A stretch of 37,720 nt of DNA from a virus. Taxonomy: Duplodnaviria; Heunggongvirae; Uroviricota; Caudoviricetes. Positions 6,523 through 30,237 of this stretch are shown piece by piece. The notes under the pieces are model-generated. The model did not search any database and was not told where the DNA came from. It was given only the letters and a program-made list of their open reading frames with translations. The stretch covers positions 167,743-205,462 of IMG/VR virus record IMGVR_UViG_3300012943_000001; one strand, given 5' to 3'. A program made the translations under genes and the position numbers. Position 1 is the first letter of the stretch. Each line of letters opens with the position of its first letter.

Positions 6523-7128
6523 ATGCTTACAAGATATTTCGGCCCCACTCCCTACTCAGTTTTCGGCTCTCTAGGCGGCACACGAGATGACAAGTACGTT
6601 ATTTTTGGCGTTGACAATAAACTTTACGCCTATCATCTTGTAGGTGGAAGTATTAAGTGCCTTACTCATTGGAAAGAGGCGGAAGTCGCAAAGACGCTCA
6701 AAAACCAACTCTGGCACCAATTCACTGTAGCTGAGTTGGAAACGTTTATTCCCGGACAAATTGTAGGTGTAGAAATTGCGGGCGTCAAGTCGTTCTTCGA
6801 AAGCTCGCCGAACGCGAAATTTTTAATTGACAAGCCTACCGTCGATGGTCAAGGCTTCATCAAAGTCAAATCCAAACAAAAAACTAAAATGGCAGTCATC
6901 GGTCAACAACCAGTATCCCAAAACGTCGTGGACACAACTCCACGCACAGTCACCAGAGGTCAGCTCTACTATAATCTCGCAGAGAAGCAGGTTCAGCGTA
7001 TCATCGAAATCCAAGGTCACCTTTATTGGGCGTCCTATCACAAACAAGCAGCAAAGCCATACGGCATCAAATCTTTCCGCAAGGCAACAAAGGCTGAGGT
7101 AGATTCCTATCTCGCTAACGCCAACTAA
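6523..7128 (+). CDS. Hypothetical protein
   Basis: ORF with ATG 34 nt from TTGACT(6489). Confidence 0.7.
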   Translation: MLTRYFGPTPYSVFGSLGGTRDDKYVIFGVDNKLYAYHLVGGSIKCLTHWKEAEVAKTLKNQLWHQFTVAELETFIPGQIVGVEIAGVKSFFESSPNAKFLIDKPTVDGQGFIKVKSKQKTKMAVIGQQPVSQNVVDTTPRTVTRGQLYYNLAEKQVQRIIEIQGHLYWASYHKQAAKPYGIKSFRKATKAEVDSYLANAN

Positions 7129-7426
7129 TTTTCAAAAGCACGTCTACGCTGCCATAGGTAGGGAAGTCTCTGTTCGGTTAAGTCCGGCCCTGAGTCCTAT
7201 GGTAGAGGAAGTTCGCCGCTTCTTAACACGCCGCAGGCAGACCTAGTAACTGGGAAACCAGCAGAACAGTCGTTATGACCTCATGGAAGAAGCAACCCTA
7301 AAGTTCCTAGAGTGAGTGTTACTCGACAATGGTAAGGTTGGGGCAGTTTGCTATTAACACGCAACCAGACGCAAGTCTGAGACAAATGTAGACCTAATAC
7401 AGAACGGCGGCTATTACTTTTGAAAA
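7129..7426 (+). ncRNA. rnpB: RNase P RNA (reduced specificity domain)
   Basis: P1 TTTTCAAAAG/CTTTTGAAAA; P2 GTCTAC/GTAGAC; P3 CTGCCATAGG/CCTATGGTAG; CR-I GAGGAAGTTCGCC; P4 AGT(T)CGCC/GGCGGCT with bulged U; P5 GCTTCTT/AAGAAGC; L15 GGTA; CR-IV AGACAAATG; CR-V ATACAGAAC..GGCTA. Confidence 0.85.
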
Positions 7427-7806
7427 CTCAACTCTCCCGAGTGTATGCCCCTGTGGCAATTTGCACAGAGGAGAGTTGTTTTATCTAGCTCTTTCTTGAT
7501 ACGTTCGAACGAATGATTTTTCGCCATAGCGATAGCAATCGAATTTTCCTTGACTTCTGGGTCAAGATGGTGAAACTCTAAAGCAGATAGAAATTTATTG
7601 AATCCGCAGCACTGGCAAGCTCCACCTTTATAAGCGACCGCTTTTACTTTCATTTCCCTACGTTTCTTCTGAAGTCGCTCACGTCGATTATTCAGTACGG
7701 ACGCTCCGCAATAGTAAGCTATCGTTCCACGATTAACTCCCGTCTTTTTCTCAATCTCTCTGTAACTTAAACCCTCTGACCTAAGCTTCAATAGTATGTC
7801 TTTCAT
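7414..7806 (-). CDS. HNH endonuclease with N-terminal HTH
   Basis: GLSYREIEKKTGVNRGTIAYY HTH; GGACQCCGF, LEFHHLDP, LLCANCHRGIH; ATG at 7806. Confidence 0.9.
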   Translation of the reverse strand: MKDILLKLRSEGLSYREIEKKTGVNRGTIAYYCGASVLNNRRERLQKKRREMKVKAVAYKGGACQCCGFNKFLSALEFHHLDPEVKENSIAIAMAKNHSFERIKKELDKTTLLCANCHRGIHSGELSFQK

Positions 7807-8100: not shown

Positions 8101-8405
8101 TGATATACTCTAGAAGAAAAACAATCGCTCGAATCATTTACTTGCTGAATAGTCCGACTTTTCTATTCATGTCTCAAGGCTTCGCGTTTCGAGGAAAAAG
8201 ACTTCGAATCCGCTATGTAAATCGCAAGGCGAGCCACACAGAGTTGAATAAGCTTGACACCACGACTCTTCGCCTTCTTCATGACTGCATGATTATAACT
8301 GAGTCCATAGCTCCTAATCTCAAAAGAACTTTAGGCAACAACGTCTCAAAAAGAGGATACGAATGGAACGTCCCATTTACTCCTCGCAACCGCTTTTCAA
8401 AGTGA
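8100..8405 (+). CDS. Hypothetical protein
   Basis: TAATG coupling to the upstream gene. Confidence 0.55.
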   Translation: MIYSRRKTIARIIYLLNSPTFLFMSQGFAFRGKRLRIRYVNRKASHTELNKLDTTTLRLLHDCMIITESIAPNLKRTLGNNVSKRGYEWNVPFTPRNRFSK

Positions 8406-9205
8406 GTAACATTCTTTCAGGTAAATCTATCGAACTCCTCTGTGAATTTCACGGAGGCTCGCATCTTTACGGGCTCAATACGCCTGCCAGCGACATCGAC
8501 GTTCGAGGCGTGTACGCAAATACGGACTACACGTCCATCCTTGGTACGAAACGCTTTGACGAAGAGCGTAGGCAAACGGCGAGCATCCAAGAGGATATCG
8601 TCTACAAAGAGGTGAGTCACTTTATCCGTCTTCTTAAACAGTCGAATACGGAGGCGTTGGAAATTCTTTTTGCGTCTGAGTCTGCGTTCTCTATACTCTC
8701 CGACTCCATGAAGTTGATTCGTTCCTACCACGAGTCTCTTGTCGATTCTGAGCGTCTATACAAATGCCTTTGCGGATATATGCAGGGCGAGTATCGTCTT
8801 GCTATTGGAGAACGTAAAGGCCAGATTGGCGGCAAACGCTACGAGTCTGTACAGAAGTACGGGTTTAGTCCGAAAAACTTTACGCAGCTCTTCCGCCTCG
8901 CCTATGCAGGCCAGATGTTCTTTGAGCAAAATCGCTTCCCAGTTAACATTAAAGAAGAAAAAGACCCTGACATTTGGAACGCTTTGATGAATATCAAAAC
9001 GAAGCCAGAACTCTTCACGAAAGACGAGCTTACGCTTAAATATGCTGAGGCTGAGTTGGCCCTTGAACAGGCTTACGAAAACCGCGTCGTAGAGCGTAAG
9101 TTTGATGAAGACAAAGCGAATGAGCTTCTATTTGATGTCTATATGCCGCACCTCGTCAATGGCTATCAGGAAGCGTTGTCGAAGCGAATTAAGAGTCGCG
9201 AATGA
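8402..9205 (+). CDS. Pol-beta superfamily nucleotidyltransferase (RlaP / RNA-repair-associated type)
   Basis: GGSHLYGLNTPASDIDVRGVY, NTEALEILF, YGFSPKNFTQLFRL; GTG 8402 coupled to the upstream stop. Confidence 0.8.
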   Translation: MSNILSGKSIELLCEFHGGSHLYGLNTPASDIDVRGVYANTDYTSILGTKRFDEERRQTASIQEDIVYKEVSHFIRLLKQSNTEALEILFASESAFSILSDSMKLIRSYHESLVDSERLYKCLCGYMQGEYRLAIGERKGQIGGKRYESVQKYGFSPKNFTQLFRLAYAGQMFFEQNRFPVNIKEEKDPDIWNALMNIKTKPELFTKDELTLKYAEAELALEQAYENRVVERKFDEDKANELLFDVYMPHLVNGYQEALSKRIKSRE

Positions 9206-9976: not shown

Positions 9977-10038
9977 GATTTTTTCGAAAAGTTCTTGACG
10001 AACGCAAAAGAGTCTGTATTATAGTTCGTATAGTTAGT

Positions 10039-10054
10039 TGTTCTTTAATAATTT
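10039..10054 (+). promoter_or_regulatory. boxA-like motif
   Basis: TGTTCTTTAATAATTT after promoter TTGACG(9995)-N16-TATTAT, immediately before the tRNA-like cluster. Confidence 0.6.
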
Positions 10055-10055
10055 C

Positions 10056-10168
10056 GGGGAAGTAGCTCAGAGGTGGCGAGACGCAAGTCTTGTAGACTAG
10101 AGTCAAATCTAGGTAGAGCGAGCGATAACTTCGCTAGGTCGGTGGTTCGAATCCATCCTTCCCCACCA
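10056..10168 (+). tRNA. Non-canonical tRNA with expanded D-loop and 5-nt anticodon loop
   Basis: Acceptor GGGGAAG/CTTCCCC-A-CCA, D-stem GCTC/GAGC enclosing two extra hairpins, arm AGCGA-TAACT-TCGCT, T-arm GGTGG-TTCGAAT-CCATC. Confidence 0.8.
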
Positions 10169-10174
10169 ATTTAT

Positions 10175-10246
10175 GCCGCGTCGTCTAAGCACTAGGACGC
10201 CACCTTACCCGGTGGAAATGCAGATTCGTAACCTGCTGCGGCACCA
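10175..10246 (+). tRNA. Degenerate tRNA with 6-nt anticodon loop
   Basis: GCCGCG/TGCGGC-A-CCA, D-stem GTCT/GGAC, arm CCACC-TTACCC-GGTGG, T-loop TTCGTAA. Confidence 0.65.
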
Positions 10247-10249
10247 ATT

Positions 10250-10335
10250 TAGCGGTCGTCTAATATAGGACACTTGAGGCGTAAAAAGCATCAAGGAATG
10301 CAGGTAGCCACGCCCGGTTACTTCGCCCGCTAGCA
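10250..10335 (+). other. Highly degenerate tRNA-like element
   Basis: TAGCGG/CCGCTA, D-arm GTCT-AATATA-GGAC, arm CTTGA...TCAAG; no TTC T-loop; ends GCA. Confidence 0.4.
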
Positions 10336-10389
10336 AATTTTGCAGACGTATTCTGCAAGTCGGGGTAGGTAAGCCTGAGAGTCTATCTG

Positions 10390-11283: not shown

Positions 11284-11359
11284 GCTTGGGTAGCTCAATG
11301 GCAGAGCAGGCGTCTCTAAAACGCGTCGGTTGTGGGTTCGACTCCCACCCCTTGCACCA
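11284..11359 (+). tRNA. Amber suppressor tRNA (anticodon CTA)
   Basis: Acceptor GCTTGGG/CCCTTGC (two U-U), D-arm GCTC/GAGC, arm GGCGT-CTCTAAA-ACGCG, T-loop TTCGACT, A73, CCA; own promoter TTGACT(11247)-N17-CAATCT. Confidence 0.88.
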
Positions 11360-11590: not shown

Positions 11591-11723
11591 TGGAGAGTAT
11601 GGGGTAACGTCATCCCCACCCGCGTGGGAGCGGGAGAAGGTAATACTACTAGCGTTATGGGTCTAATTAACCTACCCGCAGGAATAACTTTAGCTGTAGG
11701 TTTAAGTCCTACCTCTCTGACCA
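11591..11723 (+). tRNA. tRNA-Pro(GGG)-like RNA with 6-nt anticodon loop and 61-nt variable region
   Basis: Acceptor TGGAGAG/CTCTCTG-A-CCA; D-arm TGGGG/CCCCA; arm CCCGC-GTGGGA-GCGGG; T-arm GTAGG-TTTAAGT-CCTAC. Confidence 0.65.
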
Positions 11724-11859
11724 TTTTAGGCTCCGCGAAATGCATCTAGTGGAGCCTGTCTGTTGTAGTATGCCGGGGTAATCTGTATAGTTCCCGCTTA
11801 GTCGCACGTCATTGCAGAAGACCATTGCGAGCCGCAGACGAATTTCTTTTATTACGTAC

Positions 11860-11928
11860 AGGTATGTAGTCTAATGGTAAAACACGAGGCTATTTCCGAG
11901 TATCTTGGTTCGAATCCAAGCGTACCAG
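11860..11928 (+). pseudogene. tRNA-like element lacking a proper anticodon arm
   Basis: GGTATG/CGTACC, D-loop AATGGTAA, intact T-arm CTTGG-TTCGAAT-CCAAG; no 5-bp anticodon stem. Confidence 0.55.
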
Positions 11929-11939
11929 TGCGTAAGTTT

Positions 11940-28971: not shown

Positions 28972-29007
28972 ATTGACTTTTTGCAAACGAGTGAACTCTT
29001 TCGTAAT

Positions 29008-30237
29008 ATGAACATCATAGACACAATCGAAGCTGGCGTAGAGGTATGTGAGAAACTTCAAGAAGCGGGTCACCAAGCAGTATTTGCAGGTGGTTGTGTA
29101 CGCGATTTTCTATTGGGTGTAGAACCCACGGACATCGACATTGCTACGAGTGCGACGCCAGACCAAGTTGAAGCCCTCTTTCCCAAGACTGTAGCTGTGG
29201 GCAAAAGTTTTGGTGTCATCCGCGTAATACATGACGAGGAGGAGTTCGAAGTGGCTACCTTCCGCAAAGATTCCAAAGAGGGTGACGGTCGCAGACCTGA
29301 CTCTGTAGAATTTTCCTCAATGGAGGAAGATGCCAAGCGTCGTGACCTTACGATTAACGCAATCTTTTTCGACCCAATCAGTGACAAGTTCCATGACTTT
29401 GTAAATGGTCAGCGGGACTTGCATCACAAAATTATCTGCATGGTGGGTGACCCTGCCGAACGTATCAAAGAAGATAAGCTGAGAATCCTTCGTGTGATTA
29501 GGTTTGCTGCCCGGTACAAGGGTGCAGTCATCGAATCAGAGACGGGTCAAGCCGTACTTGAACATGCGAAAGAAGTTCTCGAAGTCTCCCATGAACGCAT
29601 TGGAGATGAATTGACGAAAATTCTCACGCATAAGAGTGCGGCTGTGGGCCTAGTCCACCTAAAGAACTACGGTTTGGATTTTCTGGTGCAGCCAAGTACG
29701 CTAATGGGCCGCAATCATATCCGTAACGCTATCGAAGTGTTTACGTTCGCATCGAAGCATACGGCTGGTAATAAATCGCTGGCGTGGGCCGCAGCTCTCC
29801 ACGAGTACGGCTACGACGCAATCGTACAACACCTCAAGTTCCTTCGCTTCGACACGAAGACGATTGACCGTGTGGTAGGCATCACGGATTTGCTCAAAGG
29901 CTTCCCCGGATTCAAAACGCTCCCTGTATCTAGCAGAACGAAAATGCTAGCGACGGAGTATTTTGATGACACATTCCGTCTTTTCTCCTGCCTGCCTAAT
30001 ACGAAAGAAAGCCTCTGTGATTTTATCCTTCACTTTCAGGCTTCAACGCCTCTTTCGCAGGTAAAACCAGAGCGTCTTGTAAATGGTAATGACCTGATTG
30101 CTATGGGAATGAAGCCCGGTAAGAAATTCAAGGAAATCCTTGAAGTCATTGATACCCAGCAGCGTGAGGGTATTGTTACCTCGCGTGACGAAGCTATGGA
30201 AATCGCCAAAGCAATGGTGGCGAAAATTTCTGCATAA
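29008..30237 (+). CDS. cca: CCA-adding tRNA nucleotidyltransferase (class II)
   Basis: GGCVRDFLLG..DIDIAT, EVATFR, DGRRP flexible loop, RRDLTINA, EDKLRILRVIRFAAR, VNGNDL..GMKPG; ATG 35 nt from TTGACT(28973). Confidence 0.88.
   Translation: MNIIDTIEAGVEVCEKLQEAGHQAVFAGGCVRDFLLGVEPTDIDIATSATPDQVEALFPKTVAVGKSFGVIRVIHDEEEFEVATFRKDSKEGDGRRPDSVEFSSMEEDAKRRDLTINAIFFDPISDKFHDFVNGQRDLHHKIICMVGDPAERIKEDKLRILRVIRFAARYKGAVIESETGQAVLEHAKEVLEVSHERIGDELTKILTHKSAAVGLVHLKNYGLDFLVQPSTLMGRNHIRNAIEVFTFASKHTAGNKSLAWAAALHEYGYDAIVQHLKFLRFDTKTIDRVVGITDLLKGFPGFKTLPVSSRTKMLATEYFDDTFRLFSCLPNTKESLCDFILHFQASTPLSQVKPERLVNGNDLIAMGMKPGKKFKEILEVIDTQQREGIVTSRDEAMEIAKAMVAKISA

Follow-up and report, generated by a model that had tools for sequence, protein, structure and literature searches.

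A tRNA-shaped phage RNA with an enlarged D-loop and a shortened loop at the anticodon position

Can an RNA that keeps the body of a tRNA, but not a usual anticodon loop, still have a function in a phage? This question is raised by positions 10056-10168 (+ strand) of a 37,720-nt stretch of phage DNA, here called the window, which is the final 37.7 kb of the 205,462-bp IMG/VR record IMGVR_UViG_3300012943_000001. The record bears direct terminal repeats. The locus holds a tRNA-like RNA of 113 nt that combines a complete tRNA core with a D-loop of 47 nt and a 5-nt loop at the anticodon position. In view of its intact body and the recurrence of this design in unrelated phages, it is more likely to be a working tRNA look-alike than a dead gene. 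To the specific reading that the 113-nt RNA is a functional, tRNA-derived mimic which does not decode, we give about even chances.

Anatomy of the 113-nt RNA

The Rfam tRNA model RF00005 aligns to the locus from end to end (model positions 1-71) with 46.3 bits, compared with a gathering cut-off of 29, and with an E-value of 6e-7 for the whole window. The alignment contains a 41-nt insertion in the D-loop, and the anticodon loop has 4 letters where the model has 6, so that 2 nt are missing. The predicted fold has a minimum free energy (MFE) of -42.6 kcal/mol, compared with -31.1 ± 3.4 kcal/mol for 200 dinucleotide shuffles (z = -3.4), none of which equals it. Both the MFE and the centroid fold contain the acceptor, the two hairpins of the D-loop, the short-loop arm and the T-arm. 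The D-stem was assigned from the covariance model (CM) alignment and its perfect complementarity.

An earlier note on this DNA had described an acceptor with CCA, a T-arm, a D-stem, a 47-nt D-loop with two hairpins and a 5-nt loop TAACT, and every one of these details can be read in the sequence. The acceptor 5' strand GGGGAAG (10056-10062) forms Watson-Crick pairs at 7 of 7 positions with CTTCCCC (10158-10164) in the MFE fold and the CM alignment. CTTCCCC is followed by the discriminator A73 and an encoded CCA, which together occupy 10158-10168. T8 and A9 lie between the acceptor and the D-stem, which is formed by GCTC (10065-10068) and GAGC (10116-10119). Within the D-loop (10069-10115), hairpin 1 (CGAGAC-GCAA-GTCTTG, 7 bp, 10076-10093) is capped by the GNRA tetraloop GCAA, and hairpin 2 (CTAGA/TCTAG, 5 bp, 10097-10112) has the 6-nt loop GTCAAA. 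The following GTA and the D-stem 3' strand GAGC (10113-10119) are preceded by the final G of hairpin 2, which completes the usual G18 G19 N A21 context GGTA-GAGC. The same context after the insert is also found in most of the viral D-loop-insert examples described below. G26 is followed by the arm at the anticodon position, AGCGA-TAACT-TCGCT (10121-10135), with 5 bp and a 5-nt loop (10126-10130). The CM alignment then places a class-I variable loop, AGGTC (10136-10140), and the T-arm GGTGG-TTCGAAT-CCATC (10141-10157) is supported by both the CM and the MFE fold. All of these parts lie on the + strand.

The core letters are all present (U8, A14, G15/C48, GG before A21, G26/A44, G46 and the T54-C56 context). 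All 21 canonical pairs are intact, and beyond the two changes in length no decay by point mutation is visible. The RNA shares with elongator tRNAs of the RF00005 type the 7-bp acceptor, the A73-CCA end, the 4-bp D-stem, the 5-nt variable loop, the 5-bp T-stem with its TTCGAAT loop and the letters of the elbow and core. It differs from them in the D-loop, which has 47 nt and two hairpins instead of 7-11 nt, and in the loop at the anticodon position, which has 5 nt instead of 7 nt. The usual 5-bp stem with a 7-nt loop, U33 and a purine at position 37 is absent, and the alternative of 4 bp and 7 nt places a U at position 37. Because the arm ends in 5 nt, a three-base anticodon cannot be shown on the usual 7-nt U-turn. 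Since the locus passes the tRNA model but departs from it in the size of the D-loop and in the 7-nt loop, the 113-nt RNA is tRNA-like for readers of the acceptor, the T-arm and the elbow but is not a tRNA for the ribosome.

With default settings, ARAGORN gives no call for positions 10056-10168, and no open reading frame (ORF) of at least 80 aa overlaps them on either strand. The insert does not appear to be a duplicate of the tRNA 5' part: GTAGACTAGAG and GTAGCTCAGAG agree at only 8 of 11 letters, and shuffled sequences align locally just as well (p = 0.9). The longest antisense matches to the phage's own genome are 12-mers, which corresponds to chance level. The amino-acid type of the body could not be read from similarity. 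Within the genome, tRNA-Ala(UGC) is the best paralogue, with low identity, and the best match in Escherichia coli is a tRNA-Met (83%, E = 0.08); both are uninformative.

A reading as type-II tRNA, with hairpin 2 as anticodon arm and the short-loop arm as variable arm, was rejected. A type-II form would have an anticodon arm with a 7-nt loop immediately before the long variable arm. The loop of hairpin 2 has 6 nt, and between this hairpin and the short-loop arm lies GTAGAGCG, 8 nt that include the D-stem 3' strand. The short-loop arm is followed by the 5-nt class-I variable loop, whereas 1-2 nt before the T-stem are expected in a type-II form. The sole 17-nt segment similar to an anticodon arm contains a mismatch and leaves out hairpins 1 and 2.

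Occurrence of the design in phages and cells

For recurrence of the design, the complete IMG/VR database was scanned for a single exact tRNA core whose D-stem strands are separated by an additional 25-55 nt, which gave 39 loci (cited here by L numbers where needed). The same core scan over one genome per prokaryote species gave at least 120 loci. A canonical anticodon arm of 5 bp and 7 nt is found in only 2 of 14 distinct viral sequences but in 44 of the 47 cellular sequences among the matches listed (Fisher p = 2e-8). Counted by family, these numbers are about 4 of 17 for viruses and 20 of 22 for cells, again among the matches listed (p = 3e-5). The 44 cellular sequences present a sensible anticodon on the canonical arm, and the cellular inserts among these matches are either introns in the D-loop of archaeal tRNAs or, in bacterial tRNAs, single hairpins. 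On the viral side, about 10 unrelated phage families combine a D-stem-enclosed insert with a 4-6-nt loop or a tetraloop on a perfect stem. Loops of 5 nt occur in the families L137, L115 and L302, loops of 4 nt or tetraloops in L030 (UUCG), L040b, L306, L311, L008 and L028, and a mini-hairpin cap in L089. L302 (5 nt) as well as L306 and L311 (4 nt) were added by a second scan with a different T-loop. The abnormal viral arms are nearly always paired at 5 of 5 positions and are not ragged, and a U at position '33' is found in 2 of 5 members with a 5-nt loop. The five-part architecture is recovered by MFE folding alone in L137, L008 and L115. This shows that, among the matches listed, a compact, non-decoding cap is far commoner in phage D-loop-insert elements than in cellular ones, and that its stems are intact.

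In addition, the second scan revealed a phage tRNA lineage that has D-loop hairpins yet normal anticodon loops. The statement of the earlier note that decoding needs a compact D/T elbow is too strong, since many cellular and phage tRNAs pair D-loop hairpins with canonical anticodon loops. A further group of tRNA-Phe-like phage elements (L299, L303, L304 and L326) has a D-loop hairpin stem that covaries (TTAAG/CTTAA, GTGAAG/CTTCAC, GTGTGG/CCACAC), and the 6-nt loop of these elements retains GAA (GUGAAA, CUGAAC).

The elements nearest to the 113-nt RNA come from a phage of 376 kb and a metagenome contig related to it (L132 and L276) and from a 50-kb provirus (L089/L112/L275). They have the acceptor GGGGAAG and the T-arm in common with it, together with a D-stem-enclosed insert and an abnormal arm. 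The insert of L089 aligns weakly with that of the 113-nt RNA (p = 0.02), and for L132 the similarity is not significant. In one member of the pair L132/L276, the arm at the anticodon position misses its outer pair. L132, L276 and L089 carry G3:U70 and A73, where the 113-nt RNA instead has G3:C70. The combination of G3:U70 and A73 is the alanine acceptor mark.

D-loop hairpins were also observed in tRNAs of Solirubrobacterales (tRNA-Glu), CPR bacteria and Muribaculaceae. In Solirubrobacterales and related Actinomycetes, the chromosomal tRNA-Glu(UUC) (L168, L170, L185, L228, L246 and others) has a GC-rich D-loop hairpin and a canonical anticodon arm. Phage tRNAs on the Solirubrobacterales-type tRNA-Glu body carry Glu, Ala, Lys and Arg anticodons. 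A separate class of long phage tRNAs (L119, L117, L101, L024, L012, L025, L074 and others) has a normal D-arm that is followed by an insert of 40-60 nt. The inserts of the L119 type share the motifs TCATGT.CGTGA ... ACAGC(A/G)A, and some contain CTGATGA. L129 and L138 are viral type-II tRNAs with the anticodon loop CUCUAAA, i.e., the amber-suppressor anticodon CUA on a body with a long variable arm. In a literature search, we found no published description of tRNA-shaped phage RNAs in which the D-stem encloses hairpins and the anticodon loop is shortened, or of anticodon-less mimics; one survey mentions unnamed tRNA-like candidates in phages (PMC10690425).

Tandem array and genome setting

The 113-nt RNA lies in a 2.6-kb stretch (window 9.6-12.5 kb) whose + strand contains no long ORFs and is dense in structured RNA. 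A sigma-70-type promoter-like site, TTGACG - 16 nt - TATTAT (9995-10022, + strand, 10 of 12 consensus matches), ends 33 nt upstream of the RNA. The consensus scan overall gave no more sites than shuffled sequences, and we infer this promoter from its position. Between it and the RNA 5' end, the boxA-like leader motif TGTTCTTTAATAA is located at 10039-10051 on the + strand. The motif GTTCTTTAA has 8 copies in the genome, compared with about 1.6 expected, and 3 of the 8 lie within the noncoding RNA (ncRNA) region. The core of hairpin 1, GAC-GCAA-GUC (10-mer GACGCAAGTC), has 3 genome copies, compared with 0.4 expected. All three (window 7368, 10080 and 12010) are on the + strand inside the ncRNA region, the copy at 10080 being hairpin 1 itself. 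For window 7000-7550, cmscan against Rfam returned no family at E values up to 1.

The 113-nt RNA is the first of three tandem tRNA-shaped RNAs, which are separated by spacers of 5 nt and 1 nt. Unit 2 (10174-10247, + strand) has the 6-nt loop TTACCC, a D-loop without GG and the T-loop TTCGTAA. It folds into a cloverleaf by MFE alone (z = -2.7) and is found by ARAGORN only at a relaxed threshold. Unit 3 (10249-10339, + strand) has a 7-bp closing stem, a D-like arm and an extended arm at the anticodon position, and its T-arm is replaced by a long hairpin; its MFE fold is cloverleaf-like (z = -2.9). Another tRNA-like RNA with a 6-nt loop is located at about window 11858-11931. The 113-nt RNA is thus part of a cluster of tRNA-shaped RNAs without standard anticodon loops, which is apart from the main array of normal tRNAs. 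The 6-nt loops of the tRNA-like genes at window 11858-11931, genome 160459-160533 and window 11591-11723 read CUAUUU, GUUAAA and GUGGGA. In these three loops, as in UUACCC of unit 2 and in the hairpin-2 loop GUCAAA, the second letter is U, and the common format N-U-NNN-N looks like an anticodon loop minus one 3' letter.

A close cultured relative of the phage was not found; its CCA-adding enzyme (window 28981-30237) is at most 33% identical to any GenBank phage protein. In the genome segment 156-179 kb, ARAGORN identified 48 canonical tRNA genes; a relaxed threshold added a few. The canonical set includes Val(UAC) and Val(GAC). Because these approximately 48 tRNAs are present, including the two for valine, decoding by the phage would not need the 113-nt RNA. 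A T4 Rnl1-type and an Rnl2-type RNA ligase are encoded at genome 146940-147521 and 152092-152598, just upstream of the tRNA array. The RlaP nucleotidyltransferase gene (window 8363-9205) is located 0.85 kb upstream of the cluster of the 113-nt RNA. RlaP extends damaged RNA 3' ends by 1-2 nt and aids in restoring repaired tRNAs (bioRxiv 10.64898/2025.12.29.696909). A tmRNA (Rfam, 87.9 bits) is encoded at genome 80775-81114, 1.4 kb upstream of a gene for a Ro60/TROVE protein of 520 aa (genome 82497-84059; both outside the window), which is 95 kb away from the 113-nt RNA. The Ro60 ORF matches TROVE with 39.9 bits, shows a weak match to the Ro60 vWA domain and matches TROVE proteins in the PDB over the full length (E 1e-16). 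With its ligases, RlaP, CCA-adding enzyme, Ro60 and tmRNA, the phage genome represents a heavy investment in the repair of tRNA and other RNA. Two further tRNA genes were noted, a well-formed tRNA with the anticodon CUA of the amber suppressor type (window 11284-11359, Rfam 51.6 bits, labelled Pyl by ARAGORN) and a call for a 92-nt tRNA-Ile(UAU) at genome 162460-162551, outside the window.

Possible functions and comparison with known RNAs

Several explanations other than a functional mimic have to be considered. The locus might be a decaying pseudogene, i.e., a duplicated phage tRNA that became functionless by insertion into the D-loop and loss of 2 nt from the anticodon loop. This is unlikely in our view, but it would account for two independent length lesions within one gene, the missing ARAGORN call at default settings, the lack of an orthologue showing conservation and the progressive drift of units 2 and 3 from the tRNA form. 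Dead tRNA copies are possible in large phage genomes, and the outer arm pair lost in one of L132/L276 would fit as well. However, no disruptive substitution is found in the 21 canonical pairs, in the 12 pairs of the insert hairpins or in the letters of the tertiary contacts. A promoter-like site and the encoded CCA are present, and the same two 'lesions' occur on perfect stems in about 10 unrelated phage families but are almost absent from cellular D-loop-insert tRNAs among the matches listed. These observations fit the preference of the earlier note for a non-decoding role over decay; for the comparison with relatives that it proposed, no orthologue was retrieved. As candidate roles, the note had named a nuclease decoy, an aminoacyl carrier and a modulator of EF-Tu or the ribosome. 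A D-loop intron that is removed after transcription is very improbable. D-loop introns, a frequent feature of archaeal tRNA genes, turned up in the same pattern scan, and the phage encodes two RNA ligases, but the 5-nt loop at the anticodon position would persist after excision of the 41-nt insert. A bulge-helix-bulge cannot be drawn at the insert ends, where GGTG after a 3-nt bulge is unpaired with GGTA before GAGC. The splicing endonuclease (PF01974) and RtcB are absent from the genome of the phage. With 41 nt, the insert is far below the size of group I introns and matches no intron family, and the promoter and boxA context is bacterial. When introns were allowed, ARAGORN proposed a tRNA-Thr(UGU) with a 16-nt intron. 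This model was rejected: the anticodon stem that it requires contains two mismatches as well as a G-U pair, and the perfect pairing of GCTC and GAGC is ignored.

The RNA could also be an odd but working adaptor or an aminoacyl carrier. If the closing A-U pair of the short-loop arm is opened, a 4-bp stem with the 7-nt loop A-U-AAC-U-U is obtained, with a U at the would-be position 33 and AAC, a valine anticodon. Such an RNA might become aminoacylated and then perhaps decode or pass its amino acid on to another process. A73 and the class-I core are retained, and the relatives with the same acceptor (L132, L276 and L089) bear G3:U70 and A73. In addition, the retention of GAA in L299, L303, L304 and L326, while their stems covary, indicates that shortened loops may stay selected for their triplet. 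Nevertheless, we regard such an adaptor as improbable. No decoding geometry is known that combines an anticodon stem of 4 bp with a pyrimidine at position 37, a U at '33' occurs in just 2 of 5 members with 5-nt loops, and Val(UAC) and Val(GAC) already exist in the genome. The 113-nt RNA itself has G3:C70 and not G3:U70, and similarity assigns no amino acid to its body. Still somewhat less probable is a use of the tRNA-shaped units as punctuation, by which RNase P and RNase Z would be recruited to cut a polycistronic ncRNA and the released units would have no job of their own. The head-to-tail arrangement of the units in the structured stretch, between an RNA of approximately 300 nt and further RNAs, would agree with this, as would the fact that the acceptor and the T-arm, which are RNase P determinants, are the only well-kept parts in units 1 and 2. 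On the other hand, three such marks in a row with nothing between them would be purposeless, and unit 3 has no T-arm. The stable D-loop hairpins would be left unexplained, as would the short loops in phage elements that stand alone (L137, L112).

Some results weigh against a functional, non-decoding mimic. The 4-bp D-stem that closes the 47-nt loop is not formed in the MFE and centroid folds. An orthologue of the 113-nt RNA was found neither by blastn against cultured phages nor via the neighbouring RlaP protein in IMG/VR, and DNA searches of the nearest-element records and an acceptor-specific metagenome pattern matched the tRNA core alone. The phage class is heterogeneous, with some members having canonical anticodon loops, and the scans, which started from exact tRNA motifs and from elements with a closed acceptor stem, are biased toward intact bodies. 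The conserved GAA of the tRNA-Phe-like elements suggests decoding or synthetase recognition there. TROVE proteins are encoded in 3 of 11 records with class members, and never adjacent to them. Finally, the element of the coliphage phiEcoM-GJ1, described below, is not counted as a class member because its reading as type-II tRNA-Leu is equally possible.

If the 113-nt RNA is a functional mimic, it would be transcribed from its own promoter as the first RNA of the array, and RNase P would cut the transcript at G1. The encoded CCA would be retained or mended by the CCA-adding enzyme of the phage, and the RNA would fold into an L-shape with the two hairpins jutting from the elbow. It would then be bound like a tRNA and exert its effect in this way, without taking part in decoding. 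The partner may be a tRNA-recognizing protein in the contest between phage and host over tRNAs. tRNA-targeting defence nucleases are widespread and are countered by phage tRNAs (PMC10264068, PMC11555353, PMC12851939, PMC13056530, PMC12445682), and one option is that the RNA serves as an uncleavable competitor for such a host nuclease. As another option, it may be a cofactor for RNA-repair or quality-control proteins of the phage itself, e.g., Ro60. Within the mimic reading, both roles carry roughly equal and low weight. In a broader proposal, which is speculative and which we consider rather unlikely, anticodon-less and elbow-extended tRNA mimics would form an RNA class that is specific to phages and dedicated to a role in the conflict over tRNAs, either as nuclease decoys or as the missing Y-type partners of Ro60 and RNA repair. 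Ro60 is encoded both by this phage and by the phage with the most similar element (L132), and neither has a recognizable adjoining Y RNA.

The tRNA genes of phages are now viewed as a means to counter tRNA-cleaving nucleases of bacterial immunity. RNAs which show everything to tRNA-binding proteins yet are unable to read codons would represent mimicry and not replacement. They could point to partners of the phage Ro60 and RNA-repair enzymes. Because standard tRNA finders miss such elements or label them as ordinary tRNAs, phage tRNA counts and arguments based on codon usage are affected.

The closest known kind are the small stable RNAs of phage tRNA clusters. The species 1 and species 2 RNAs of phage T4 (rnaC, rnaD) are annotated as small stable RNAs inside the phage tRNA cluster, and the 113-nt RNA, a putative stable and processed RNA, is likewise situated in a region of phage tRNAs and ncRNAs. 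The T4 rnaC RNA has a canonical T-arm (CCGGG-UUCGAAU-CCCGG), a terminal stem and long hairpins in place of the D and anticodon arms. In contrast to the 113-nt RNA, which retains the whole tRNA core, it is without D-stem and cloverleaf core. No similarity of sequence or model to rnaC or rnaD was detected, and rnaC reaches just 17.5 bits with the tRNA-Sec model. To our knowledge, the two T4 RNAs still have no assigned function, species 1 having been without one since the 1970s.

Functional analogues exist in the Y RNAs and in the tRNA-like domain of tmRNA, and the 113-nt RNA is a member of neither. As partners, bacterial and phage Ro60 proteins have tRNA-mimicking Y RNAs, of which one is cut by RNase P and given CCA; the 'anticodon' stem of Yrn1 has 5 bp and a 6-nt loop, and in YrlA the 5' and 3' ends lie in the Ro60-binding stem with the motif GNCGAA(N)G, the tRNA-like domain is closed at its 'acceptor' and the gene is adjacent to that of Ro60 (PMC4201824). 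Common to the Y RNAs (YrlA, Yrn1) and the case described here are a Ro60/TROVE protein encoded in the phage genome and, for Yrn1, the short 'anticodon' loop. A YrlA-type Y RNA was rejected: GNCGAA(N)G is absent from 10056-10168, the ends lie in the acceptor stem and Ro60 is 95 kb away. No Rfam match to Y RNAs was obtained for the 113-nt RNA or beside the Ro60 genes of this phage, the L132 phage and the L124 phage. The link to Ro60 is only suggestive, a lead and not a result. The tRNA-like domain of tmRNA is also a tRNA-shaped module with acceptor and T-arm, has no anticodon and stands outside normal decoding. The locus was rejected as a tmRNA: it has G3:C70 instead of G3:U70, no mRNA-like part and no pseudoknots, and it is called as tmRNA neither by ARAGORN nor by Rfam. 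The phage carries, moreover, the separate true tmRNA described above.

The tRNAs with a D-loop arm or D-loop intron in archaea, Solirubrobacterales (tRNA-Glu(UUC)) and phages also have their insert within GCUC/GAGC, usually beside G18-G19. They differ in the 5-bp/7-nt arm with U33 (44 of 47 among the matches listed) and mostly carry one hairpin, instead of the two hairpins and the 5-nt loop found here. More similar in architecture is the 'tRNA-Arg' of phiEcoM-GJ1 (Carltongylesvirus), an element of 95-96 nt in which GCUC and GAGC flank an insert and a 5-bp arm at the anticodon position ends in a 5-nt loop. It has been reported as tRNA-Arg or Leu (PMC6266442, PMC8762354). Its annotation reads 'tRNA-Arg, may contain an intron', and most genome records carry none; if the mimic reading is correct, it is an example of mislabelling. 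It differs in admitting a second reading, that of a type-II tRNA-Leu(CAG) whose variable arm is the short-loop arm, and this reading would account for the hypervariable 5-nt loop. As a cultured coliphage genus, Carltongylesvirus would offer a bench system for the related architecture. The core stems of the element vary at 2 of 57 columns, compared with 55 of 88 in the flanks. In L281:1713-1807 and its 14 relatives (L122, L123, L135, L282-L293), the 5-nt loop occurs as the alleles UUCGA, UAAGA, UUAGG and UCGAA, and the insert in the D region of these elements occurs as two alleles.

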